DNA of 25,093 nucleotides from a virus (IMGVR_UViG_2541047854_000006), one strand, 5' to 3'; counted from the stretch's first letter, positions 20 to 25,093 are shown. A program made the numbers and translations. Notes: generated by a model from the sequence alone, not told the origin.

Positions 20-1300
20 TTAATTTTTCATTGCTTCGTTATGGGGCATGGTTGGGGCAAACTCGCTTAACTGTGTATTTAACAAAGCTACCTGTGCATT
101 ATTGTTTTCAGACATCCATTTTCCGTATACCTGAAATACCATTTGCGCATCTGCATGGCCCATCTGGTTTGCTATAAATGCCGGGTTAGCACCAGCTGTC
201 AGCGACCAGCAGGCATAAGTATGTCTCGACTGATATGATTTTCGATGGCGGAGTCCGGCACGTTTTATCGCTGCGTCCCACATCTGCCTTATTGAGTCAA
301 CGGTAAAATGGTCACCATAATTTTTTACTCTCGCTGACACTTCAGGTTGAAAAACAAAGGTGCATTTTTGTTTTTCTGTTCTGCCATACTCTCTGAGGTG
401 AACATCAATGATATGCTCTTTGCTCAGTCTCGTTAATGTCATCTGACTCCGGAGAGCGTCGATTGCTGGCTTAATAAGATGAATGACCCGATTGGTTCCC
501 GCCTGTGTTTTTGGTACCGTGAAACGGTCTTTTGCTAAATTTCTCCTGATCATCATTGTTCCATTTTTCAGATCTATGTCCTCCCATCCAAGTGCACACA
601 GCTCACCAGGGCGAACGCCAGTATAAACAGAAACACACCATAAATTTTTTGCTTGCTGATTTCTGCACGCATCGATAAGACGGATAAATTCTTCCCGCGA
701 AAGAGGATCCGGAATGGTTCTTGATTCCTTTAATGGCGAGATCCCCTTAAACGGATTATCTGCCAGGTAACCGTTATCAACACCAAACTGGAACACGGCG
801 TTAAGATTTGTCATGTAATTAATTACAGTTACAGCCGATCTCCCTGGTTGTGTAACAATATAGTTACTTTTGGGGATCTGGTATCCAGTCAGTAACTCTT
901 TACGAACCTCCAGTAATTTTTCTTTATTAATCGATGAGGCAAGATTTTTTTCACCGATTATGCTCAGGATATTTTTGATGACGGCACGGTATGTGTTGAG
1001 TGATGTTTTGGCGACTTCAGTTTCTTTCAGTGCCAGAAATTTTTCAGCCAGTTCTTTTATGGTTAAATCTTGTCGGGCCTCACCAAATTTTTCCAGATTG
1101 CGTGAGGAGGGAAACTGTTTTGCATAGTCGAAAACACCAGTTTTTATTGCGTAACAAACAGAGGAGCGTAGTTCACCTGCAACGCGCCTGTTTTTTGCTG
1201 TGTCAGGAACCCCCAGATTTTCCCTGACTCTTACGTCTTTATAAACAAACCAGATACGTAATTTCCCTCCATGGTTTTCCACGCCTGTCGGATATTTCAT
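20..1300 (-). CDS. Prophage tyrosine integrase (lambda/Rac IntR-like, N-terminal arm-binding domain)
   Basis: 431-aa ORF 20..1315; N-terminus KYPTGVENHGGKLRIWF resembles arm-binding N-domain of lambdoid integrases; C-terminal catalytic region has R...HxxR...Y residues (RHRKSYQSRHTYACW, VFQVYGKW). Start set at second Met (MKYPTG) because it has a GAGAGAAG RBS-like sequence upstream; first Met at 1315 lacks one. Confidence 0.85.
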   Translation of the reverse strand: MKYPTGVENHGGKLRIWFVYKDVRVRENLGVPDTAKNRRVAGELRSSVCYAIKTGVFDYAKQFPSSRNLEKFGEARQDLTIKELAEKFLALKETEVAKTSLNTYRAVIKNILSIIGEKNLASSINKEKLLEVRKELLTGYQIPKSNYIVTQPGRSAVTVINYMTNLNAVFQFGVDNGYLADNPFKGISPLKESRTIPDPLSREEFIRLIDACRNQQAKNLWCVSVYTGVRPGELCALGWEDIDLKNGTMMIRRNLAKDRFTVPKTQAGTNRVIHLIKPAIDALRSQMTLTRLSKEHIIDVHLREYGRTEKQKCTFVFQPEVSARVKNYGDHFTVDSIRQMWDAAIKRAGLRHRKSYQSRHTYACWSLTAGANPAFIANQMGHADAQMVFQVYGKWMSENNNAQVALLNTQLSEFAPTMPHNEAMKN

Positions 1301-1334
1301 TTCAACTTCTCTCATTAGTTAGTGTGGCTTTTAG

Positions 1335-1586
1335 TCAAGTAAGATGACGTCTTGGTCTCGCTGATGCCTGGCGCTCAATCCAGCGATCAATTTCTTCCAG
1401 GTTGTAAAAGCATGGACTGTTATCCCATGGCATACCGTCATGAGCGACATGCTTATATTCCCTTCCTTCCATAAACGATTTTTCCCGGGCCTTTTTTAAC
1501 GTACCTTTTTTTATTCCTTTCAGCGCAATTAACTGCTCTTCGGATACCCATTTGCCGGGAGAGACAATCATGATTACTTCGCTCAT
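1335..1586 (-). CDS. Putative excisionase-like small protein (Xis position, directly upstream of int)
   Basis: 83-aa ORF immediately upstream of and co-oriented with the integrase; size and position typical for a lambdoid excisionase. Function inferred from context only. Confidence 0.45.
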   Translation of the reverse strand: MSEVIMIVSPGKWVSEEQLIALKGIKKGTLKKAREKSFMEGREYKHVAHDGMPWDNSPCFYNLEEIDRWIERQASARPRRHLT

Positions 1587-4598: not shown

Positions 4599-4921
4599 AC
4601 AGGCTCGTGAGGCTCTGGATGCCTGGATATGTCGACCAGGAATGACACAGGAGCAGTGGCGATGTATACAACTCCGGCTACGGGTTATTCCCCTCTGAAC
4701 AGGCGCGTAAGGACTGGCAAAACGCCCGCAAAAAACTCTCGAGGGCAAAGGTGAAGAAACCTGCTGTGGTTGATCCGGACCTTATCTGGTCATCACCTGA
4801 CGGAGAAATACGTCGCTACGACAGTCGCCTAAACATAATCTGTCGCGAGTGCCGGAAGAGCGAAGTTATGCAGCGCATACTGGCTTTCTATCAGGGTAAT
4901 TTTCAGGACGTGGCGCAGTGA
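4582..4921 (+). pseudogene. Early-right ORF apparently split by a +1 frameshift (or two short overlapping ORFs)
   Basis: Frame 1 ATG 4582 gives 38 codons ending at TGA 4696..4698; frame 2 is open from 4646 to TGA 4919..4921 (ends in GTGA overlap with next gene). Both frames contain a similar EQAR..DW motif. Alternative: second ORF starts at GTG 4751 with GAGGG RBS. Confidence 0.3.
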
Positions 4922-10477: not shown

Positions 10478-10753
10478 GAGGGATGGTCCCTTAAGGGTAA
10501 AGGGATTGTTCTGGATGAAAAAAGAACCCGGTTTCATGGCGTACCGGTATATAAGATTTGTGGGCGTTGTAATGGAAACCGGTTTAGTCGTTTACCGACC
10601 ACGCTGGCACGACGTCATGTCCAGAAGCTGGTACCAGACCTGACCGATTATCAGTGGTATAAGGGGTATGCGGACGTCATTGGTAAACTGGTAACAAAGT
10701 GCTGGCAGGAAGAAGCATACGCGGAAGCGCAATTGAGGAAGGTGACGAGATAA
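10478..10753 (+). pseudogene. Q antiterminator remnant (C-terminal about 90 codons, no start codon)
   Basis: Frame open from 10478 with no in-frame ATG; translation ...KICGRCNGNRFSRLPTTLARRHVQKLVPDLTDYQWYKGYADVIGKLVTKCWQEEAYAEAQLRKVTR* aligns with the C-terminus of lambda Q (CGRCKGVGYSRMP...NLTQPTW...CHKEESIADNILNAVTR). Confidence 0.6.
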
Positions 10754-10784
10754 ATGATTTTTGCTGAAGATGGCGACATGATGT

Positions 10785-10813
10785 TTGCATTTTTCAAAAA
10801 ATATGGATAAAAT
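10785..10813 (+). promoter_or_regulatory. Late promoter candidate (PR'-like) immediately downstream of Q remnant
   Basis: TTGCAT-N17-TAAAAT sigma-70-like elements 32 bp after the Q stop, in the position of a lambdoid late promoter. Confidence 0.45.
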
Positions 10814-10862
10814 TTTTTCAACGATGGGCTTTGTATACCCGACGTTAAGAAAAAGTAGAAAA

Positions 10863-10889
10863 CCCGCTGATGAGCGGGTTTTGTGCTTT
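10863..10889 (+). terminator. Rho-independent terminator (tR'-like) downstream of late promoter candidate
   Basis: CCCGC-TGATGA-GCGGG hairpin followed by TTTTGTGCTTT. Confidence 0.55.
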
Positions 10890-11174
10890 AAATGGGGCAA
10901 TGGTAATGTTGAATCTCATCCCGGGACTCATGTCTGTTAACTTATTATTTAGCTGGTGACTTGGTTATTTGCCTGATGTTTAAAATGTTTTCTTCCAGTA
11001 CAATGTCCCTAAACACAATGAGTCTGCTTATTATATTATTAGCAGAGCTATTACGGCCAAAGTACAGCATAAGCTTTTAAAGCCAATCAACCAGTCATCA
11101 AGACAGACGGGGTTATTCATAAAAACTCTCCATGTGTGATCCGATGGGGCCTGAAATTAAAGCTTTAATATAGC

Positions 11175-11387
11175 TCATGAAAGGTAAACATTGGCAGCTG
11201 AAGGGCCACGCAGACCATTTATCCGGCAAAATTCCACGCGTAATCCGGTGGTAATTTCTTCTGCATCGCGGAGATTGAGCGCTGAAACATGAAGCTGGAC
11301 ATCGATACGACCATCGGATGGGGTGATAAGACCCTTGCCGCTTTTGCCGTCAAAGGTTTTGACAATTCCTGTCATTTTACGGGACAA
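11175..11387 (-). CDS. cspF: Cold-shock-domain protein CspF
   Basis: 70-aa protein [70 protein letters not shown]; CSD fold with divergent RNP motifs as in CspF/CspH. Confidence 0.8.
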
Positions 11388-11687
11388 AAAAATTCCTTAA
11401 TACTGATAACTTGGCGCACTATACACACGTTCCTGAAGAAAGCTATAGTTTTTTGATGGGGTTGAAGATGGCTGGATGTCTAAAATAAACATTGCTTCAT
11501 ATGTTCAACTATGCGTTAATGATTGCGTCGGTTTGAAGAACAGACGATATACGAAGTAGTTTACTAAAGCAGTTCTCATTTCAGGTGTTATTCACTTATT
11601 CCTTCTTTGAGTCTCTCCAATTAAGTACGAAGTCGTTTCTGTTATGCAAACCATTTATGCCGAAAGGCTCAAGTTAAGGAATGTAGA

Positions 11688-11903
11688 ATGTCAAATAAAA
11701 TGACTGGTTTAGTAAAATGGTTTAACGCTGATAAAGGTTTCGGCTTTATTTCTCCTGTTGATGGTAGTAAAGATGTGTTTGTGCATTTTTCTGCGATTCA
11801 GAATGATAATTATCGAACCTTATTTGAAGGTCAAAAGGTTACCTTCTCTATAGAGAGTGGTGCTAAAGGTCCTGCAGCAGCAAATGTCATCATTACTGAT
11901 TAA
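11688..11903 (+). CDS. cspB: Cold-shock protein CspB
   Basis: 71-aa protein [71 protein letters not shown]; long AT-rich 5' leader typical of cold-shock genes. Confidence 0.9.
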
Positions 11904-12185
11904 AATTCATCGCTCGTCTGTATACGATAACGAAGAAGGCTGATGCCTGAGTAGAGATACGGACAGAGTAGTGAATATTGGATCTCTTTAATAAAAAGTA
12001 AGGAGGTCCAATACATGAAACAATGGCTAGCATATTTGGCAAAATCTTAATCAGGAAAAGTATGCTAACCATTGTGGTGAAGTGCAGGTTTGCTGCATGA
12101 ATAGTTTTACAGCAGAAGCTAACTGCTGGCATGGCAAAACAAAGTGCGTAAGTGGATGACTCCCACAAAAAGCACCACAATCTCA

Positions 12186-12210
12186 AACCCGCTCAGGCGG
12201 GTTTTTTATT
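12186..12210. terminator. Hairpin terminator (possibly bidirectional) between cspB region and convergent zinc-ribbon ORF
   Basis: AACCCGC-TCAG-GCGGGTT followed by TTTTTTATT on plus strand; complementary strand is followed by TTTGAGATT. Confidence 0.6.
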
Positions 12211-12266
12211 ATCTGCTTTAAATATATTATTAAAATATAAAAAATACTTGTTACTAATAAAATCAA

Positions 12267-12437
12267 TCAGGCTACAGCTTTAAGATTTGTCTGGAATACT
12301 TTGTTGCAATGAGGGCAGATCAAAAGGGCACCTTTTTGTACTCTTGAAAAACTGTGTTCTGACTCTTGGGTGCAGTTTGGGCAGGAACATTTAACGAGAT
12401 AATTACGGCGTGATTTTGAGTTTTTACGTTCTGACAT
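12267..12437 (-). CDS. Small C4 zinc-ribbon protein (56 aa), hypothetical
   Basis: Internal Met of the 73-aa track ORF has an AGGAAAA RBS; MSERKNSKSRRNYLVKCSCPNCTQESEHSFSRVQKGALLICPHCNKVF... contains CxCPNC...CPHC. Confidence 0.5.
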   Translation of the reverse strand: MSERKNSKSRRNYLVKCSCPNCTQESEHSFSRVQKGALLICPHCNKVFQTNLKAVA

Positions 12438-12656
12438 AGGCTTTTCCTGTATAAATGGCCGTATACAGTACACTAAATATGAAAACATTTCTCGTATTAT
12501 TATTTTATATATGACTTTCTTTCAAAATAATTACCCACATTTTTAATTTGTATGTTTTTTTAGCGCCGTTGAGAACAACGTGTGCTGTCAAAACTACCCC
12601 GTAGACTCCGATCTTTTCAAACATATTGCACCATCCGTGTACATCGGGGTGAGGAT

Positions 12657-12872
12657 ATGAAATCAATGGATAAGTTAACAACAGGTGTTGCCTATGGCAC
12701 ATCGGCGGGTAATGCTGGTTTCTGGGCATTGCAGTTACTCGATAAAGTAACTCCGTCACAGTGGGCTGCAATCGGTGTGCTGGGTAGCCTGGTTTTTGGC
12801 CTGCTGACGTATCTGACAAATCTTTATTTCAAGATTAAAGAAGACAGGCGTAAGGCTGCGAGAGGAGAGTAA
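12657..12872 (+). CDS. Class II holin, phage 21 S-type pinholin with dual-start motif
   Basis: [71 protein letters not shown] closely resembles remembered S21 pinholin; MKSMDK offers two starts (antiholin/holin). Track ORF start 12582 is upstream of the likely RBS-supported start. Confidence 0.85.
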
Positions 12873-12876
12873 TCCA

Positions 12877-13184
12877 ATGACTCAAGACTATGAACTGGTT
12901 GTGAAAGGAGTCCGTAATTTTGAGAATAAAGTTACGGTAACTGTAGCCTTACAGGACAAAGAACGCTTTGACGGTGAAATTTTTGACCTGGATGTCGCCA
13001 TGGACCGTGTTGAAGGAGCTGCGCTGGAGTTTTATGAGGCAGCAGCCAGAAGGAGCGCCCGGCAAGTCTTCCTGGAAGTAGCAGAAAAATTGTCAGAAAA
13101 AGTTGAGTCTTATCTGCAGCATCAGTACTCCTTTAAGATTGAAAATCCTGCCAATAAGCACGAGCGTCCTCATCATAAATATCT

Positions 13185-13188
<4 letters not shown>
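12877..13188 (+). CDS. ydfR: YdfR-like protein of unknown function located between holin and endolysin
   Basis: 103-aa protein MTQDYELVVKGVRNFENKVTVTVALQDKERFDGEIFDLDVAMDRVEGAALEFYEAAARRS... matches my memory of Qin YdfR; stop overlaps endolysin start (ATGA). Confidence 0.6.
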
Positions 13189-14212
<1,024 letters not shown>

Positions 14213-14574
14213 GGTAATATTAAATCGGAACATTTACATCGCGGAATGTAAAATTTAAATAAAAAGGACTCTTCCATGAGCCAAAATTCCTGAAATCTTA
14301 AGGGTAAGATAAAAGGTCTTAATCAGAATGACACGTTTTATTAATAAATAAAGCTATTCTTTCATTGCTGTGTTTTTCTTTACAAAAGTAATCCTTGCTA
14401 TGGGTGGTTAATCATGCGTTAATGGTGTTCTGGTTTGTTACAAATTTATCTGAAGCAGTCATTGTTATAATTTTATTATTTGTACCTCTTGAGATTTCCT
14501 TGTTGGTTTTTCTCTCTGATATTTTTTTTCGGACCATTCTGCCCAAGGGCTAATTTCTTCAAAAGGTAATAATT

Positions 14575-14787
14575 ATGTCTAACAAAATGACTGGTTTAGT
14601 GAAATGGTTTAACCCTGAAAAAGGTTTTGGTTTCATCACGCCGAAAGATGGCAGCAAAGATGTGTTTGTCCATTTCTCAGCAATTCAGAGCAACGATTTC
14701 AAAACATTAACTGAGAATCAGGAAGTTGAATTTGGTATTGAGAACGGACCTAAAGGTCCTGCCGCTGTTCATGTAGTGGCGCTTTGA
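14575..14787 (+). CDS. cspI: Cold-shock protein CspI
   Basis: 70-aa protein [70 protein letters not shown]; preceded by about 350 bp AT-rich leader. Confidence 0.9.
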
Positions 14788-14993
14788 GGTAGACAATATT
14801 ACAAACCATATTCACTTTAGATGCCCGTGTTGTCATGGTTCCCAGTATAGAACATCATCTTTTGATGTTTCTGACATGAATCCTTTCGGGGCAAAATGTA
14901 TCTTTTGTAAATCAATGATGATTACATTTGATAATATTTCACAATACTTAAATGCCAGCCGTCTGTCGTTGGATTTAAAAAAGTGAAAATGAA

Positions 14994-15015
14994 GGCTCCT
15001 TCGGGAGCTTTTTTG
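14994..15015 (+). terminator. Rho-independent terminator downstream of cspI region
   Basis: GCTCC-TTCG-GGAGC hairpin followed by TTTTTTG. Confidence 0.6.
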
Positions 15016-15058
15016 CTTGGTGTCTATTCGATGGATACTCACATACTACGGTAACATC

Positions 15059-15289
15059 ATGAAAAAAATCATAGTTTTTTTTAACTCTGAACCAGCAGTG
15101 GTAGTGCCAGCGATGACTGGAGTTAACACCATCATGCGTGAATATCCAAATGGCGAAAAAACACACCTTACTGTAATGGCCGCAGGGTTTCCATCTCTGA
15201 CCGGAGATCATAAAGTCATTTATGTAGCCGCGGATCGACATGTTACTTCAGAAGAAATTCTGGAAGCAGCAATAAGGCTCTTGAGTTGA
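15059..15289 (+). CDS. Hypothetical protein (76 aa from ATG 15059; track ORF begins at TTG 15017)
   Basis: Open frame only; no recognisable motif; weak RBS. Confidence 0.35.
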   Translation: MKKIIVFFNSEPAVVVPAMTGVNTIMREYPNGEKTHLTVMAAGFPSLTGDHKVIYVAADRHVTSEEILEAAIRLLS

Positions 15290-15457
15290 TTTGATGCTAT
15301 TGCATTGATAATTCAGGAAAATTCTCTTTGTCTGTTTGTGTAAAATTTAGACTATCGTATGTTGATTATTGCGATGTTTCATCTTATCTTTTACACGTTT
15401 GCACCATATAATCGACTTACTGTGTAACTGGAAAGTCATAACAGACTAAAAGAGGAA

Positions 15458-15634
15458 ATGATGAATATTGAAAACTTAAAAACAAAAGCAGAAGCAGATA
15501 TTTCTGAATATATAACAAAAAAAATTATTGAACTTAAGAAAAAGACCGGGAAAGAAGTTACCAGTATTCAGTTTACCGCACGGGAAAAAATGACGGGTCT
15601 TGAAAGCTATGATGTCAAGATTAATTTAATCTGA
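15458..15634 (+). CDS. gnsB: GnsA/GnsB-family small protein
   Basis: 58-codon ORF not in the track: MMNIENLKTKAEADISEYITKKIIELKKKTGKEVTSIQFTAREKMTGLESYDVKINLI, AAGAGGA RBS; matches remembered GnsB family sequence. Confidence 0.8.
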   Translation: MMNIENLKTKAEADISEYITKKIIELKKKTGKEVTSIQFTAREKMTGLESYDVKINLI

Positions 15635-15662
15635 TGTATTCAATAATAAAATTTATCCATAA

Positions 15663-15690
15663 ACCTCGTTTTTACGGGGTTTTGTTATAT
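15663..15690 (+). terminator. Rho-independent terminator after gnsB
   Basis: ACCTCG-TTTTTA-CGGGGT hairpin followed by TTTGTTATATTTG. Confidence 0.55.
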
Positions 15691-15785
15691 TTGAATGGTT
15701 CCGAATATCTAAATCACAATTGTTGATGGTTTTTATTAAACCAATGCAGTCCGGCTCAGGAGTGAGAGAAGCCGGACGTTATGGT

Positions 15786-16211
15786 TTAGCGTGGTAAGAT
15801 CTGTGTAGTTTTCTGGATGCTTTCAGTAAATAGTAATGAATTATCAAAGGTATAGTAATATCTTTTTTGTTCGTGGATATTTGTAACCCACCGAAAAACT
15901 CCTGCTTTAGCAAGGTTTCTTCTGTATTCCTGAAATGTGATCTCTCTGGATTTCAGCTTATTAGAGGTCGTTTCTATAAGATGCCTATCCTTTGAAAATT
16001 TGACAGACACAATGTTTTTTAGGCCCTTTAATAACACTGTATTATCATTTTTTAATACAATATGAACATTCTCTGTGGCTAAATAGTAAATGTAATGTGA
16101 GACATTGTGACGTTTTAGCTCAGAATAAAACCATTGATAGTTTAAATCGTTTCGAACTTTATCAAATATTTGTTTAAAAATGACTACCTGATCCATAGAT
16201 AAACCTTCCAT
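15786..16211 (-). CDS. Prophage protein of unknown function (DUF1398-like, YdfO/YbcV position)
   Basis: 141-aa ORF; likely start at second Met (16196) which has a GGAAGG RBS. Family assignment from memory of gene order in Qin/DLP12, not verified. Confidence 0.6.
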
Positions 16212-16253
16212 GTGATATGAGGGGGCGTAGTCTGCACGATTATCTAAATTGCT

Positions 16254-16487
16254 TCAATCTGGTCTGACCTGTTTTCTGAGCAATTCAGTAATGTCACTCT
16301 TTTCTTTGTTTGCTTCAGAAGAAACTCTTTTTTCTGAGCACAGTCTCCGGCGGCAGGCTTCAATGACCCAGGCTGAGAAATTCCCGGACCCTTTTTGCTC
16401 AAGAGCGATGTTAATTTGTTCAATCATTTGGTTAGGAAAGCGGATGTTGCGGGTTGTTGTTCTGCGGGTTCTGTTCTTCGTTGACAT
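16254..16487 (-). CDS. Small basic protein (YnfO/YlcI-like, gene preceding the Nu1 homolog)
   Basis: 77-aa ORF MSTKNRTRRTTTRNIRFPNQMIEQINIALEQKGSGNFSAWVIEACRRRL...; basic N-terminus; conserved position upstream of terminase small subunit in lambdoid prophages. Confidence 0.55.
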   Translation of the reverse strand: MSTKNRTRRTTTRNIRFPNQMIEQINIALEQKGSGNFSAWVIEACRRRLCSEKRVSSEANKEKSDITELLRKQVRPD

Positions 16488-16639
16488 GAGGTTGCCCCGT
16501 ATTCAGTGTCGCTGATTTGTATTGTCTGAAGTTGTTTTTACGTTAAGTTGATGCAGATCAATTAATACGATACCTGCGTCATAATTGATTATTTGACGTG
16601 GTTTGATGGCCTCCACGCACGTTGTGATATGTAGATGAT

Positions 16640-16875
16640 AATCATTATCACTTTACGGGTCCTTTCCGGTGATCCGACAGGTTACGGGGCGGCGACCTCG
16701 CGGGTTTTCGCTATTTATGAAAATTTTCCGGTTTAAGGCATTTCCGTTCTTCTTCGTCGTAACTTAATGTTTTTATTTAAAATACCCCCTGAAAAGAAAG
16801 GAAACGACAGGTGCTGAAAACGAGCTTTTGGGCCTCTGTCGTTTCCTTTCTCTGTTTTTGGCCGTGGAATGAACA
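16640..16875 (+). other. Lambda-type cos site: cosN (12-nt cohesive end GGGCGGCGACCT at 16687..16698) plus cosB region up to Nu1
   Basis: Sequence GGTTACGGGGCGGCGACCTCGCGGGTTTTCGCTATTTATGAAAATTTTCCGGTTTAAGGC... is nearly identical to the left end of the phage lambda genome as I remember it, continuing into Nu1. Confidence 0.85.
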
Positions 16876-17421
16876 ATGGAAGTCAACAAAAAGCAGCTGG
16901 CTGACATTTTCGGTGCGAGTATCCGTACCATTCAGAACTGGCAGGAACAGGGAATGCCCGTTCTGCGAGGCGGTGGCAAGGGTAATGAGGTGCTTTATGA
17001 CTCTGCCGCCGTTATAAGATGGTATGCCGAAAGGGATGCTGAAATTGAGAACGAAAAGCTGCGCCGGGAAGTTGAAGAACTGCGGCAGGCCAGCGAGACA
17101 GATCTCCAGCCAGGGACTATTGAGTACGAACGCCATCGACTTACGCGTGCGCAGGCCGACGCACAGGAGCTGAAAAATGCCAGAGACTCCGCTGAAGTGG
17201 TGGAAACCGCATTCTGTACTTTCGTGCTGTCGCGGATCGCAGGTGAAATTGCCAGTATTCTCGACGGGATCCCCCTGTCGGTGCAGCGGCGTTTTCCGGA
17301 ACTGGAAAACCGACATGTTGATTTCCTGAAACGGGATATCATCAAAGCCATGAACAAAGCAGCCGCGCTGGATGAACTGATACCGGGGTTGCTGAGTGAA
17401 TATATCGAACAGTCAGGTTAA
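16876..17421 (+). CDS. Terminase small subunit, lambda Nu1 homolog
   Basis: 181-aa protein MEVNKKQLADIFGASIRTIQNWQEQGMPVLRGGGKGNEVLYDSAAV... essentially lambda Nu1. Confidence 0.92.
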   Translation: MEVNKKQLADIFGASIRTIQNWQEQGMPVLRGGGKGNEVLYDSAAVIRWYAERDAEIENEKLRREVEELRQASETDLQPGTIEYERHRLTRAQADAQELKNARDSAEVVETAFCTFVLSRIAGEIASILDGIPLSVQRRFPELENRHVDFLKRDIIKAMNKAAALDELIPGLLSEYIEQSG

Positions 17422-18406
17422 CAGGCTGCGGCATTTTGTCCGCGCCGGGCTTCGCTCACTGTTCAGGCCGGAGCCACAGACCGCCGTTGAATGGGCGGAT
17501 GCTAATTACTATCTCCCGAAAGAATCCGCATACCAGGAAGGGCGCTGGGAAACACTGCCCTTTCAGCGGGCCATCATGAATGCGATGGGCAGCGACTACA
17601 TCCGTGAGGTGAATGTGGTGAAGTCTGCCCGTGTCGGTTATTCCAAAATGCTGCTGGGTGTTTATGCCTACTTTATAGAGCATAAGCAGCGCAACACCCT
17701 TATCTGGTTGCCGACGGATGGTGATGCCGAGAACTTTATGAAAACCCACGTTGAGCCGACCATCCGCGATATTCCGTCGCTGCTGGCGCTGGCTCCGTGG
17801 TATGGCAAAAAGCACCGGGATAACACGCTCACTATGAAGCGTTTTTCCAATGGTCGTGGCTTCTGGTGCCTGGGCGGTAAAGCGGCAAAAAACTACCGTG
17901 AAAAGTCGGTGGATGTGGCGGGTTATGATGAACTTGCTGCCTTTGATGAGGATATTGAACAGGAAGGCTCTCCGACGTTCCTTGGCGACAAACGTATTGA
18001 AGGCTCGGTCTGGCCAAAGTCCATCCGTGGCTCCACGCCCAAAGTGAGAGGCACCTGCCAGATTGAGCGTGCAGCCAGTGAATCCCTGCATTTTATGCGT
18101 TTTCATGTTGCCTGCCCGCACTGCGGGGAGGAGCAGTATCTTAAATTTGGCGACAAAGAGACGCCGTTTGGCCTCAAATGGACGCCGGATGACCCCTCCA
18201 GCGTGTTTTATCTCTGCGAGCATAATGCCTGCGTCATCCGCCAGCAGGAGCTGGACTTTACTGATGCCCGTTATATCTGCGAAAAGACCGGGATCTGGAC
18301 CCGTGATGGCATTCTCTGGTTTTCGTCAACCGCGTTGCGTCATCCGCGATATCGCAGTCTGCGTCACAGGTTGCCCGTGAGACAAAGGTACGCCGGAAAC
18401 TGGTAA
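17396..18406 (+). pseudogene. Terminase large subunit (lambda A) N-terminal fragment, truncated by internal deletion
   Basis: Matches lambda gpA from MNISNSQVNRLRHF... through ...TGIWTRDGILWFSS (about 308 aa), then diverges into 25 unrelated codons and stops; full gpA is about 641 aa. Confidence 0.85.
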
Positions 18407-18819
18407 AGGAAAGGGCCAGGCTGAAAAGGGCCACGGTCAAAAATCCGCAGGCCAGAATCAGGGTTAACCGGGGGGATTTGCCCGTAATCAAGCTGGGTAA
18501 TGCGCGGGTTGTCCTGTCCCGCCGCAGGCGTCGTAAAAAGGGGCAGCGTTCATCCCTGAAAGGTGGCGGCAGCGTGCTTGTGGTGGGAAACCGTCGTATT
18601 CCCGGCGCGTTTATTCAGCAACTGAAAAATGGCCGGTGGCATGTCATGCAGCGTGTGGCCGGGAAAAACCGTTACCCCATTGATGTGGTGAAAATCCCGA
18701 TGGCGGTGCCGCTGACCACGGCGTTTAAACAGAATATTGAGCGGATACGGCGTGAGCGTCTTCCGAAAGAGCTGGGCTATGCGCTGCAGCATCAACTGAG
18801 AATGGTAATAAAGCGATGA
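18307..18819 (+). pseudogene. Tail completion protein (lambda Z) C-terminal fragment lacking a start
   Basis: Frame open from 18307; C-terminal 113-aa ORF (18478..18819) ends in ATGA overlap with U exactly as Z/U in lambda; upstream in-frame codons lack an ATG. Deletion junction with A lies near 18320. Confidence 0.6.
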
Positions 18820-19211
18820 AACATACTGAACTCCGTGCAGCCGTACTGGATGCACTGGAGAAGCATGACACCGGGGCGACGCTTTTTGATGGTCGCCCCG
18901 CTGTTTTTGATGAGGAAGATTTTCCGGCAGTTGCCGTTTATCTCACCGGCGCTGAATACACGGGCGAAGAGCTGGACAGCGATACCTGGCAGGCGGAGCT
19001 GCATATTGAAGTTTTCCTGCCTGCTCAGGTGCCGGATTCAGAGCTGGATTCGTGGATGGAGTCCCGGATTTATCCGGTGATGAGCGATATCCCGGCACTG
19101 TCAGATTTGATCACCAGTATGGTGGCCAGTGGCTATGACTACCGGCGCGACGATGATGCGGGCCTGTGGAGTTCAGCCGATCTGACTTATGTCATTACCT
19201 ATGAAATGTGA
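18816..19211 (+). CDS. Tail terminator protein, lambda U homolog
   Basis: 131-aa protein [67 protein letters not shown]... matches lambda gpU. Confidence 0.9.
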
Positions 19212-19218
19212 GGACGAT

Positions 19219-21210
19219 ATGCCAACACCAAATCCTCTGGCACCGGTGAAAGGGGCCGGGACCACACTGTGGGTTTATAACGGGAGCGGCGACCCTTATG
19301 CAAACCCGCTTTCAGACAATGACTGGTCGCGTCTGGCAAAGGTTAAAGACCTGACGCCCGGCGAACTGACCGCTGAGTCCTATGACGACAGTTATCTCGA
19401 TGATGAAGATGCGGACTGGACCGCGACCGGACAGGGGCAGAAATCTGCCGGAGATACCAGCTTCACGCTGGCGTGGATGCCCGGAGAGCAGGGGCAGCAG
19501 GCGCTGCTGGCGTGGTTTAATGAAGGTGATACCCGTGCCTATAAAATCCGCTTCCCGAACGGCACGGTCGATGTGTTCCGTGGCTGGGTCAGCAGTATCG
19601 GTAAGGCGGTGACGGCGAAGGAAGTGATTACCCGCACGGTGAAGGTCACCAATGTGGGACGTCCGTCGATGGCAGAAGATCGCAGCGCGACCAACAGCAC
19701 GTCTGAAACGCTTGCCGCGACACCAAAGGCAGTAAAAGCAGCCAATGACAATGCTGAGAAACGTCTGCAGAAAGATCAGAACGGTGCGGATATCCCTGGC
19801 AAAGATACCTTTACGAAAAATATTGGTGCCTGCCGTGCCTTCGGTGGGTCAGTAAGCACAACAACAGGAAACTGGACGACTGCACAGTTTATCGAGTGGC
19901 TGGATTCTCAGGGAGCATTTAACCATCCATACTGGATGTGCAAGGGTTCCTGGTCTTATGGCAATAATAAAATCATTACTGATACTGACTGCGGTAATAT
20001 TCATCTCGCCGGAGCTGTCATTGAAGTAATGGGGATAAAGTCAGCGATGACGATCCGCATTACCACACCGACCACCTCCACTGGTGGTGGAACAACTAAC
20101 GCCCAGTTTACCTATATTAATCACGGAACAGATTATTCACCTGGCTGGCGAAGGGACTATAACTCCAGAAATAAGCCAACGGCATCAGAGATCGGGGCGT
20201 TACCGTCAGGTGGAACAGCAGTATCATCAGTTAATCTGGCTTCAAAAGGTCGGGTAACCGCGCTGACAGACAATACGCAGGGGGCAGCAGGTCTTGAGTT
20301 ATACGAGGTGTATAACAACGGATATCCAACAGCGTATGGAAATATCATTCACCTGAAAGGGATGACAGCCGTTGGCGAAGGTGAGTTACTCATCGGCTGG
20401 AGTGGTACAAGCGGTGCTCATGCTCCGGCATTTATTCGTTCACGACGGGATACGACCGACGCAAACTGGTCGCCGTGGGCGCAGCTTTACACCTCGGCTC
20501 ATCCTCCTGCAGAGTTTTATCCAGTCGGTGCACCAATCCCGTGGCCATCAGATACCGTTCCGTCTGGTTATGCCCTGATGCAGGGGCAGACTTTTGACAA
20601 ATCTGCATACCCGAAACTTGCAGTTGCTTATCCGTCAGGCGTGATCCCTGATATGCGTGGCTGGACGATTAATGGCAAGCCCGCCAGTGGTCGGGCCGTA
20701 TTATCTCAGGAACAGGACGGCATTAAATCGCACACCCACAGCGCCAGCGCATCCAGTACGGATTTGGGGACGAAAACCACATCGTCGTTTGATTACGGAA
20801 CCAAATCCACGAATAACACCGGGGCGCATACCCATAGTATTAGCGGGACCGCAAATAGTGCCGGTGCGCACCAACACAAGAGTTCCGGTGCATTTGGTGG
20901 CACGAACACGAGCATTTTCCCTAATGGTTATACCGCGATTTCAAATCTAAGCGCGGGGATTATGAGCACAACAAGCGGTAGTGGCCAGACTCGTAATGCA
21001 GGGAAGACATCATCAGATGGTGCTCATACCCACTCGCTGTCCGGCACTGCTGCAAGCGCAGGCGCACATGCACATACTGTCGGTATTGGTGCTCATACGC
21101 ACTCCGTTGCGATTGGTTCACATGGACACACCATCACCGTTAACGCTGCTGGTAACGCGGAAAACACCGTCAAAAACATCGCATTTAACTATATTGTGAG
21201 GCTTGCATAA
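19219..21210 (+). CDS. Chimeric ORF: major tail protein (lambda V) N-terminal about 166 aa fused in frame to a side tail fiber C-terminal region
   Basis: N-terminus [20 protein letters not shown]...[11 protein letters not shown] matches lambda gpV; from [26 protein letters not shown] onward it matches the conserved shaft and C-terminal receptor-binding region of P2 H / lambda Stf-type fibres (PIPWPSD..., SHTHSASAS..., repeated GAHxH motifs, ...[11 protein letters not shown]). Start placed at the Met equivalent to the lambda V start. Confidence 0.8.
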
Positions 21211-23809: not shown

Positions 23810-25093
23810 ATGGATTTCCAGTTATATTCGCTCGGCGCAGCGTTAGTGTTTCATGAAATATTTTTTCCTGAATCATCAACGGCAATGGCGTTAATTTTGG
23901 CAATGGGAACCTACGGTGCAGGTTATGTGGCGCGTATTGTCGGAGCATTTATTTTCGGCAAAATGGGCGACAGAATAGGGCGTAAAAAAGTGCTCTTTAT
24001 TACCATCACCATGATGGGGATCTGTACCACCTTAATTGGTGTGTTACCGACCTATGCACAGATTGGTGTTTTTGCCCCCATCTTGCTGGTGACGCTGCGT
24101 ATTATTCAGGGGTTGGGTGCAGGTGCGGAAATTTCCGGTGCCGGTACGATGCTGGCGGAATATGCACCAAAAGGTAAGCGCGGAATTATCTCCTCATTTG
24201 TAGCTATGGGAACTAACTGCGGAACCTTGAGCGCAACGGCAATCTGGGCCTTTATGTTCTTCATTCTCAGTAAAGAGGAACTGCTGGCGTGGGGATGGCG
24301 TATACCGTTCCTGGCGAGCGTTGTCGTGATGGTCTTTGCTATCTGGTTACGTATGAATCTGAAAGAAAGCCCGGTCTTTGAGAAGGTTAATGACAGCAAC
24401 CAACCCACAGCAAAACCTGCACCTGCTGGTAGCATGTTCCAGAGCAAATCCTTCTGGCTGGCAACAGGGCTGCGTTTTGGTCAGGCGAGTAACTCCGGGT
24501 TAATTCAGACTTTCCTTGCAGGCTATTTAGTGCAGACGTTATTGTTTAACAAAGCAATTCCAACAGATGCATTGATGATTAGTTCGATTCTCGGCTTTAT
24601 GACCATTCCGTTCCTTGGTTGGTTATCCGATAAAATTGGTCGCCGGATCCCGTATATTATTATGAATACCTCCGCGATTGTGCTGGCATGGCCAATGCTT
24701 TCTATCATTGTAGATAAAAGCTATGCCCCGAGCACCATTATGGTTGCACTGATTGTGATTCATAACTGTGCGGTGCTGGGATTATTTGCTCTGGAAAACA
24801 TTACCATGGCAGAAATGTTCGGCTGTAAAAACCGCTTTACCCGGATGGCTATTTCTAAAGAAATTGGTGGTCTTATCGCTTCCGGTTTTGGTCCTATCCT
24901 GGCGGGTATTTTCTGCACCATGACGGAATCCTGGTATCCGATCGCCATTATGATCATGGCATATTCAGTGATTGGTTTAATCTCTGCGCTGAAAATGCCA
25001 GAGGTGAAAGACCGTGATTTAAGTGCGCTGGAAGACGCTGCGGAAGATCAACCGCGTGTTGTAAGAGCTGCGCAACCTTCCAGAAGTCTGTAA
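23810..25093 (+). CDS. ydfJ: MFS (metabolite:H+ symporter family) transporter, N-terminally truncated host gene
   Basis: 427-aa ORF MDFQLYSLGAALVFHEIFFPESS... begins inside the conserved (W)YDFxLYG region that normally follows a first TM helix; in-frame TGA at 23804..23806 directly upstream; Gly-rich MFS motifs (GKMGDRIGRKK). Confidence 0.85.
   Translation: MDFQLYSLGAALVFHEIFFPESSTAMALILAMGTYGAGYVARIVGAFIFGKMGDRIGRKKVLFITITMMGICTTLIGVLPTYAQIGVFAPILLVTLRIIQGLGAGAEISGAGTMLAEYAPKGKRGIISSFVAMGTNCGTLSATAIWAFMFFILSKEELLAWGWRIPFLASVVVMVFAIWLRMNLKESPVFEKVNDSNQPTAKPAPAGSMFQSKSFWLATGLRFGQASNSGLIQTFLAGYLVQTLLFNKAIPTDALMISSILGFMTIPFLGWLSDKIGRRIPYIIMNTSAIVLAWPMLSIIVDKSYAPSTIMVALIVIHNCAVLGLFALENITMAEMFGCKNRFTRMAISKEIGGLIASGFGPILAGIFCTMTESWYPIAIMIMAYSVIGLISALKMPEVKDRDLSALEDAAEDQPRVVRAAQPSRSL

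Follow-up and report, generated by a model that had tools for sequence, protein, structure and literature searches.

The cos site and nohA gene of a partly deleted Qin prophage of Escherichia coli and their relationship to phage lambda

The stretch of DNA analysed here (termed the window) is 25,093 nt in length (IMGVR_UViG_2541047854_000006) and carries a lambda-type cos site, followed by an open reading frame for a small terminase subunit and by a truncated gene for the large terminase subunit. These are very probably (probability about 0.85) the cos site and nohA of the cryptic lambdoid prophage Qin, inserted in ydfJ, in a form that is less deleted than the Qin of E. coli K-12 and that has been retained passively after a 6.4-kb deletion. 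The cos/nohA locus of Qin is itself already known, as an annotated feature of E. coli K-12. An earlier note on this DNA had suggested that the element keeps a packaging signal which a co-resident lambdoid phage could use in trans, and the results that bear on this suggestion are given below.

Identity of the Element

Positions 14000–20000 of the window (6 kb) are 100% identical to sequences in three complete E. coli genomes, where nohA is annotated by RefSeq. The relationship to Qin is seen in the comparison with E. coli K-12 MG1655. Window positions 10492–17404 display 99.96% identity with the Qin prophage of that strain, and positions 16300–17404, which span cosQ, cosN, cosB and codons 1–176 of nohA, are 100% identical. 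The collinear blocks shared with K-12 Qin show 99.6%–100% identity, and the K-12 annotation of the locus is cryptic prophage Qin, nohA b1548.

Genes found to the left of cos are cspI, ynfN, gnsB, ydfO and ynfO, and those on the other side are tfaQ, pinQ, ydfK and ydfJ. As annotated in the closest genome and in K-12, the Qin gene order is present, i.e. relBE-hokD-cspB/F-lysis-cspI-gnsB-ydfO-ynfO-cos-nohA-...-tfaQ-pinQ-ydfK, in ydfJ. The element is about 23.8 kb in length; the right Qin boundary is at approximately window position 23818 and the left boundary is at or just beyond base 1.

Two strains of E. coli carry the same locus in different states. In E. coli W, cos and the NohA protein (WP_000453611.1) are those of the window, and the cspI-ynfN-gnsB-ydfO-ynfO block is again on the left of cos, but the prophage is full length (~49 kb) and has an intact 641-codon A gene, W, the portal and complete lambda-like head and tail genes, which the window has lost. 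The window maps onto the ~49 kb of E. coli W in 6 pieces. There are 4 differences in 7.8 kb of the cos/nohA segment, and within window positions 16300–18332 there is 1 mismatch, which is exactly at the deletion junction described below.

The K-12 Qin prophage has the same locus and flanking genes as the window, but displays a further deletion of 2850 bp (window positions 17405–20254). As a result of this deletion, the last 5 NohA codons are replaced by 13 foreign ones and codon 176 of nohA is fused to stfQ. The truncated A gene (termed A′), Z′, U and part of V are removed in K-12, whereas the window keeps a complete nohA and 311 codons of A. In addition, the K-12 intQ is broken by IS2, whereas the integrase of the window is apparently intact.

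The three sequences appear to form a decay series, from a W-type full-length prophage to the element in the window (~23.8 kb) and then to K-12 Qin, with the window as the intermediate. A full-length lambda-like prophage, as in E. coli W and PhiR42_1, would have lost 6.4 kb from the middle of A to Z. Other segments would have been lost as well, with cosQ-cosN-I2-R3-I1-R2-R1 and the small terminase gene left untouched. What the window adds is this intermediate between the E. coli W prophage and K-12 Qin, with the junctions mapped to the base. As a discovery the locus carries little weight, since Qin cos/nohA and DLP12 cos/nohD are both annotated in E. coli K-12.

Anatomy of the cos Site

The window was aligned with two lambda sequences, the reference NC_001416 and one resequenced lambda, with lambda bp 1 placed at window position 16687. 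Positions 16324–18328 of the window are collinear with the right end of lambda followed by its left end (48140–48502, then 1–1643), and the identity is 98% over 2 kb. The raw alignment runs from 16324 to 18332 (48140–48502, then 1–1647), the last 4 bases being gene Z sequence. A base-by-base comparison with NC_001416 shows 389 consecutive identical bases at window positions 16351–16739 (48167–48502 and 1–53 of lambda). Within this run are cosQ, cosN together with its flanking bases, I2, and the 4 bp with which R3 begins. The order of the sites, cosQ-cosN-I2-R3-I1-R2-R1-Nu1-A, and their spacing are as in lambda.

The cosQ sequence is the signal required for the terminating cut. In the window it is found on the plus strand at positions 16657–16663 (GGGTCCT), exact in sequence and spacing, and it corresponds to lambda positions 48473–48479, reportedly the cosQ coordinates of Wieczorek and Feiss (2001). 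The sequence is 23 bp upstream of the top-strand nick position, as a lambda-type cos requires. A search of the window with the pattern cosQ(N23)cosN yielded 1 match, at positions 16657–16698 with 0 mismatches, and 100 shuffled sequences yielded 0 matches.

The cosN site (positions 16685–16700, plus strand; defined as in PMC9026076) has 16 of 16 bases as in lambda. It consists of the 12-base cohesive-end sequence GGGCGGCGACCT at positions 16687–16698 with 2 symmetric bp on each side, and nicks are expected between positions 16686 and 16687 on the top strand and between positions 16698 and 16699 on the bottom strand. The I2 spacer between cosN and cosB (positions 16704–16736, plus strand; lambda bp 18–50, its extent taken from PMC4856287) is identical to that of lambda. 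Because I2 is free of indels, the critical spacing from cosN to R3 is kept.

Coordinates of the cosB subsites were taken from the curated phage 434 record OL657226 and from Murialdo and Feiss (2022) (PMC9026076). The order R3-I1-R2 (inverted)-R1 is present, and there is no indel relative to lambda in bp 1–137. R3, the critical TerS binding site (positions 16736–16751, plus strand; lambda bp 50–65), reads AGGCATTTCCGTTCTT and is the same as lambda at 15 of 16 bases, the change being G54A. I1, the IHF binding site (positions 16760–16772, plus strand; lambda bp 74–86 according to OL657226), reads TAACTTAATGTTT and is the same at 13 of 13 bases. R2, a TerS site that is inverted relative to R3 and R1 (positions 16794–16809, minus strand; lambda bp 108–123 in OL657226), is identical to lambda, and its bases 16795–16809, read on the minus strand, are an exact copy of TGTCGTTTCCTTTCT. 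The accessory TerS site R1 (positions 16837–16852, plus strand; bp 151–166 in the 434 record) is also identical to lambda and has an exact copy of TGTCGTTTCCTTTCT at positions 16837–16851.

The earlier note had described cosN and the flanking cosB as almost identical to the left end of lambda. This is borne out: cosN is the same at all 16 bases, and cosB has six substitutions, one of which is in R3. Multiple mismatches in cosN or loss of the R-site repeats had been named beforehand as findings that would speak against the description; the base-by-base comparison gave 0 mismatches in cosN, and no R site is lost. The packaging signal had also been called functional-looking, and with cosQ, cosN, I2, I1, R2 and R1 identical to lambda it does have this appearance. 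As judged from its sequence, the cos packaging signal is intact.

Substitutions in cosB

Between cosN and the start of nohA there are 6 substitutions relative to lambda: G54A, A73G, T102C, G134A, T145G and T176G. Only G54A falls within an R site (R3). In addition, the window lacks the G of lambda bp 138. The cos regions of 12 lambda-type sequences were aligned, and this G is absent in all 12, the resequenced lambda included. The 1-bp gap was considered as a possible cosB lesion and was rejected, since 12 of 12 other lambda-type sequences are without that base; the extra G138 is particular to the reference lambda record. Each of the 7 cosB differences from the reference lambda can be found in deposited genomes of lambda-type phages. 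The 5 substitutions other than G54A are each common among natural phages (e.g. 434, 2H10, Stx1 phages, DLP12), and A73G, which is next to I1, is found in most of the natural lambda-type phages compared. Phage PhiR42_1 and the prophage of E. coli W also have G54A.

The effect of G54A bears on whether the site only looks functional, i.e. whether cos is dead because this change in R3 blocks the binding of TerS. The three R sites of lambda have the G of bp 54 in common, and it is changed here in the most critical of them. G54A raises the number of differences between R3 and R1/R2 from 3 to 4, such that R3 is missed in a search that allows ≤3 mismatches, and single transitions in R3, e.g. at bp 58, have strong phenotypes (PMC4669245, PMC9026076). 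However, bp 54 is the sole R3 change, with bp 55–65 as in lambda. The TerS contact segment determined by NMR is bp 55–63, and the functional positions are bp 56, 58 and 59 (PMC9026076). Thus G54A is one base outside the contact segment and is not among the mapped functional positions. The adjoining bp 53 is polymorphic, e.g. in the cryptic prophage DLP12 and among working phages, including 434. Furthermore, PhiR42_1 and the E. coli W prophage, which is structurally complete, share this R3 and the whole cosB with the window, and their TerS DNA-binding residues are those of lambda. G54A as a change that kills R3 was therefore rejected, and a dead cos is considered unlikely, with a small chance of being correct. 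A lesser effect is conceivable: in view of the conserved G and of R3 being the most critical R site, G54A may cause a quantitative defect with a lambda helper.

Relationship to PhiR42_1

PhiR42_1 (PV340562) is a 48.7-kb phage from host ECOR13 whose GenBank record is that of a complete genome. A literature search for a paper on PhiR42_1 or on the PV3405xx phage set yielded none. Positions 1–200 of its cos region are identical to the window, G54A included, and it shares with the window the Qin-type block cspI-ynfN-gnsB-ydfO-ynfO-cos-nohA-A at 99.3%–99.7% identity. It differs from the window in having an intact 641-codon A gene and a full set of head and tail genes.

There are also 6 positions just left of cosQ and cosN at which PhiR42_1 and the window differ, and at these the window is the same as lambda. 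To the left of cosN, then, the window agrees with lambda and PhiR42_1 differs, whereas to the right of cosN the window agrees with PhiR42_1 and lambda differs. This pattern fits an exchange at cos, of which the window sequence looks to be the product. A lambda-type TerS appears to use the Qin cosB variant in the deposited genome of PhiR42_1, a phage whose viability is taken solely from its GenBank record. That the Qin cosB variant with G54A is common to this phage genome is a modest addition to what is known of the locus.

The nohA Open Reading Frame

The nohA open reading frame (positions 16876–17421, plus strand) encodes a small terminase subunit, a homologue of Nu1, of 181 aa. It was earlier called a full-length Nu1, which is correct: the amino acid sequence matches the Pfam domain Phage_Nu1 (PF07471) over positions 1–164 of 164, with an E-value of 2e-101. 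Its RefSeq annotation in both B-JRPT-4119 and W is nohA (WP_000453611.1).

NohA differs from lambda Nu1 in 3 residues (K48R, A75T, L132I), and there are 5 synonymous changes in the nucleotide sequence. Residues 1–47 and 133–181 are as in lambda Nu1. NohA has a winged helix-turn-helix (recognition helix at positions 17–24, wing at positions 31–39) and a C-terminal TerL-binding end. Over TerS residues 1–35, a segment with the recognition helix and Lys35, lambda, NohA and all lambda-type phages compared have the same sequence.

A promoter or terminator specific to nohA was sought in the sequence, and nothing above chance was found. In vivo, binding of FNR occurs immediately upstream of nohA, and the promoter activity reported for this upstream region is low and FNR-independent (PMC1802558).

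The Truncated A Gene and the Deletion Junctions

A′ is at positions 17396–18406 (plus strand) and starts with GTG at 17396, as in lambda. Codons 1–311 of A are at positions 17396–18328; these are followed by 25 out-of-frame codons from gene Z DNA and a stop at 18406. Compared with residues 1–311 of lambda gpA, the amino acid sequence shows 4 differences; neither the Walker A box (KSARVGYS) nor the E179 region is disrupted. The only Pfam domain found in A′ is GpA_ATPase (residues 47–285), and a nuclease domain was not detected by this search. In RefSeq, A′ is marked as a pseudogene with the C-terminus missing. The A′ product is predicted not to be a functional TerL, since the endonuclease and portal-binding half is absent (homology ends at codon 311 of 641).

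The deletion junction is at 18328/18329, where the equivalent of lambda position 1643 is joined to that of 8065, with a loss of 6421 bp. The loss takes out codons 312–641 of A, the start of Z (its first 29 codons) and, between them, the genes W, B, C, Nu3, D, E, FI and FII. At exactly the junction point 18328/18329, A continues intact in E. coli W. The truncation of the large terminase subunit that the earlier note had recognized thus has a definite end point, with A stopping after codon 311 and joined to Z by the 6.4-kb deletion.

Downstream of the junction, in the direction that packaging would take, are remnants of tail genes (positions 18329–21210, plus strand). Z′ extends to position 18819 (plus strand) and matches positions 79–190 of 190 in the Pfam domain Minor_tail_Z. 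U (positions 18816–19211, plus strand) has the full Pfam domain Phage_tail_U. It is followed by a fusion of the N-terminus of V to the C-terminus of a side tail fibre (positions 19219–21210, plus strand), which has Phage_TTP_12, Phage_fiber_2 and Collar in one open reading frame. A second deletion junction is present near 19686/19687, inside this fusion, as shown by blastn against lambda. Pin-type inverted repeats were sought around tfaQ and pinQ, and nothing above chance was found.

Packaging by a Helper Phage

The element cannot package itself, as had been stated before from the sequence: the nuclease and portal-binding half of TerL, the portal and the head genes are gone. It is unable to use its own signal because Qin is without the nuclease domain, the portal and the capsid. 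A helper terminase of lambda specificity should recognize and nick this cos. Such recognition is expected because the same cosB serves PhiR42_1 and because TerS residues 1–35 are as in lambda, and we infer cos nicking and packaging initiation from the identity of cosB to that of PhiR42_1 and the E. coli W prophage. No experiment on exactly this cos sequence was found in the literature searched.

The order of events in lambda is binding of TerS and IHF to R3-I1-R2, nicking by TerL, rightward translocation of the DNA, and use of a downstream cosQ-cosN for the terminating cut (PMC4669245, PMC4856287, PMC9026076). Terminases of the cos type need a second cosQ-cosN, and DNA that protrudes from the head blocks attachment of the tail (PMC6687093).

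The Qin cos would be a passive target for an infecting or induced phage that has a terminase of lambda specificity. The TerS of the helper, together with IHF, would bind R3-I1-R2, and TerL would nick cosN at 16686/16687 and 16698/16699. The complex would stay on the nohA (cosB) side and feed DNA rightward into the prohead. The DNA that enters the head would then be nohA, the tail remnants, tfaQ, pinQ, ydfK and ydfJ, followed by host genes. The part of Qin that lies left of cos (int to ynfO; 16.7 kb, or 70% of the element) would stay outside the head, and the rightward cargo would have only 7.1 kb of Qin together with host DNA (ydfJ, mar, lsr, hipAB).

The window has no second cosN, and a search of both strands over 63 kb downstream in strain B-JRPT-4119 did not yield one either. 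The genome of this strain is the closest complete one; a 1.59-kb indel distinguishes it from the window. Filling of the head would be abortive because there is no second cosN in the window or in the next 63 kb: without a downstream cos, the head would fill, there would be no terminating cut, and the particles would be non-infectious, with protruding DNA. Abortive filling of this kind resembles the “doc” particles that Sternberg and Weisberg reportedly obtained in 1975 from unexcised lambda prophages. While the sequence identity, the anatomy of the site and the single cos are observed, cleavage, the direction of packaging and the fate of the DNA are predicted from the biology of lambda. Two outcomes would be realistic, a chromosomal double-strand break that stimulates recombination, and a homologous exchange that carries the cos/nohA segment into incoming phages.

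With respect to the element as a whole, its size of 23.8 kb is approximately half a lambda chromosome or headful. An O/P-type replication gene is not annotated in the closest genome, where the Q gene is truncated. The integrase has a chain length of 431 aa with Arm-DNA-binding and catalytic domains (Pfam), and both the integrase and the excisionase are apparently intact.

The proposal of packaging in trans can thus be kept in part. Initiation and nicking by a terminase of lambda specificity are expected; the part that is not supported is transfer of the element, given that packaging runs rightward from a single cos, that the element is of half length, that a replication module is not annotated and that Q is truncated. 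Helper-driven transfer is likely to be inefficient, and the likely events are chromosome breakage, abortive filling and recombination as documented for DLP12.

Retention of cos and nohA

Passive retention has to be weighed against readings in which cos is kept because it is used. In one of these Qin is a satellite, whose working cos allows a co-resident lambdoid helper to package and transduce the element itself. The cos is intact by sequence, the 431-aa integrase and the excisionase are apparently intact, unlike the K-12 intQ with its IS2, and a head-to-tail dimer of the 23.8-kb element (~47.6 kb) would fit within the packaging limits of the lambda head. Chromosomal islands of the cos type that hijack lambda-like helpers do exist (PMC9026076, PMC6739421). 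However, concatemers or dimers would need rare recombination because there is no annotated O/P gene and Q is truncated. Known islands of this type pair a different cosB with Rpp, whereas the gene context for an Rpp-type redirecting function is absent here; because the cosB is of the helper's own type, the element would have no packaging advantage. Packaging in situ would leave 70% of the element behind, with the terminating cos absent, and the strains differ by a series of deletions (W, the window, K-12), which is a signature of decay and not of a maintained satellite. The satellite reading is regarded as very unlikely. Much the same doubt applies to cos having been kept through use by helpers more generally. 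Packaging from position 16687 would carry host DNA (ydfJ through mar, lsr and hipAB) one way, as a cos-initiated analogue of lateral transduction, or the int+/xis+ 23.8-kb element would be packaged as a dimer; this seems highly improbable, and cos-initiated packaging of the flanking chromosome at a useful frequency is mechanistically disfavoured. If helper-driven packaging from this cos were nevertheless frequent, the mar, lsr and hipAB region could be mobilized in this way.

Retention could also have been selected for a benefit to the host, with cos as a decoy that titrates terminase, with NohA or A′ poisoning the enzyme, or with nohA as a regulated host gene. A′ keeps the Nu1-binding N-terminus and the ATPase, and the arrangement of noh beside a truncated A recurs independently in DLP12 (nohD and aaaD) and in Qin. 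The cos/nohA segment is nearly invariant in K-12, W and the window (the 4 differences in 7.8 kb being those relative to W), and there is the in vivo binding of FNR just upstream of nohA (PMC1802558). Against this, the number of A′ codons varies by lineage, i.e. 311 in the window, about 100 in DLP12 and none in K-12 Qin, and K-12 has lost the last 5 nohA codons, which are in the TerL-binding end. The variation in A′ length and the nohA loss in K-12 fit neutral erosion. The upstream promoter activity is the low, FNR-independent one cited above (PMC1802558), and a defence phenotype is not reported in the literature found. Selection for the host is given the slightest of chances. Passive retention remains the preferred reading: cos/nohA is an ordinary prophage remnant, which a helper could cut and could not efficiently move.

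Comparison with Other Systems

DLP12 of E. coli K-12 is a similar remnant, in which lysis genes and ybcV/ylcI, the homologues of ydfO/ynfO, accompany a cos, a complete Nu1 homologue and a shortened A. It differs from the window in being another prophage at another locus; its cosB has C53T and not G54A, and its A remnant is 309 bp. The DLP12 cos/nu1 region recombines with lambda approximately 100-fold more often than other prophage homologies do, and the DLP12 × lambda recombinants, which are viable, have their junctions clustered at cos (PMC3945230). Phage 434B has gained 5.5 kb from DLP12 (PMC9119081).

PICIs of the cos type resemble the window in that they are chromosomal, have a lambda-like cosN and take capsids from a lambda-like helper (PMC9026076). 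They have, however, their own unrelated cosB together with Rpp, which retargets the TerS of the helper, and they excise and replicate on induction (PMC9026076). Unlike a PICI, the window has a cosB of the phage's own type, its own TerS, and decayed phage structural and lysis genes. A PICI-like cosB of its own with an Rpp-like gene beside cos was not found; the cosB is of the lambda type, and the gene next to cos is a genuine Nu1. Identity as a cos-type PICI or satellite was rejected on the type of cosB, the gene content and the size, and the element appears to work like a dead prophage and not like a PICI.

In the helper-packaging dilysogens of Feiss, a chromosomal cos is cut in trans by the terminase of a helper, with two cos sites flanking the prophage (PMC4669245). 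The two cos sites of those dilysogens point the same way and are separated by one phage length, whereas the window locus has one cos. E. coli C was chosen as the indicator strain because it is without a lambda cosN, cryptic cos sites being avoided by phage workers (PMC4669245). Such sites are widespread in the species: of 5426 complete E. coli genomes, 4593 (85%) have lambda-type cos sites, with a median of two per genome.

Junction at cos

The Qin cryptic prophage of the window carries a mosaic breakpoint at cos, within window positions 16351–16886 (cosN at 16687). To the left of cosN, 336 bp of the window are identical to lambda, and PhiR42_1 (accession number PV340562), a phage with a Qin-type cosB, deviates at six positions there. 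To the right of cosN, 200 bp are identical to PhiR42_1 and lambda deviates at seven positions. The mosaic of lambda and PhiR42_1 sequences is consistent with recombination stimulated by cos cutting. Such recombination has been seen in DLP12, another cryptic prophage of K-12 with a cos site.

The lambda reference sequence (NC_001416) has an extra G (GAGGC) at bp 138, which falls between window positions 16823 and 16824. Neither the window nor any of the 12 other lambda-type cos sequences compared, among them resequenced lambda (PV340536), 434 and DLP12, has this G. The bp 138 G of NC_001416 reflects either an oddity of the lambda stock that was sequenced or a sequencing error of long standing.

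About 120 bp to the left of cosN, TTAAGTTGATGCAGATCAATTAAT (window positions 16543–16566) forms a perfect TTGAT-N4-ATCAA palindrome, and lambda carries it unchanged. In K-12, the site lies upstream of nohA (the Nu1 homologue) and nohB; FNR was found bound to it in vivo, and a small effect on transcription was reported (Grainger et al. 2007, PMC1802558).

A search of a collection of 5426 complete E. coli genomes using window positions 16640–16880 as query yielded lambda-type cos sequences in 4593 of them, with a median of 2 and a maximum of 8 per genome. Thirty-eight of the places found are plasmid-borne.

Deletions in Qin copies

Window positions 19189–21210 encode a single open reading frame (663–673 aa) that is a fusion between the lambda V tail-tube protein and a tail fibre. 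The N-terminal ~157 residues are from V and are followed by tail-fibre repeat and collar domains, with the junction near 19686/19687; the RefSeq name is ‘phage tail tube protein’. The fusion is the outcome of a second internal deletion, in which everything from gene G up to the beginning of stf was lost. A full-length Qin-type prophage of ~49 kb is present at the ydfJ locus of E. coli W (NC_017664, positions 1746609–1795584). There Q is intact and the late operon is complete (nohA, A, W, portal, protease, D, E, FI, FII, Z, U, V, G, T, H, M, L and further genes).

The Qin of the window differs from that of K-12 at window positions 20–1586, 3740 and 10492–10497. It has an apparently intact integrase of 431 aa and an excisionase, whereas in K-12 intQ is broken by IS2. 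The ydfA-dicF-dicB-ydfD segment (K-12 positions 1648479–1650466) is missing from the window, and so is a stretch with rem, ydfU and the greater part of ydfT, the Q gene (K-12 positions 1642751–1644929). Thus, the deletions differ between Qin copies and are partly non-nested.

The complete genomes nearest to the window are those of O15_8X, FORC_082 and B-JRPT-4119, and each matches it over its whole length at 99.9%–100% identity. The match is split into two pieces, with the break at window positions ~4600–4920, and spans 1.59 kb more in all three; the window must therefore come from a fourth related strain, one that has lost slightly more DNA. The extra DNA in B-JRPT-4119 contains genes for a YdaT-family toxin and a DUF977 protein, along with their neighbours.
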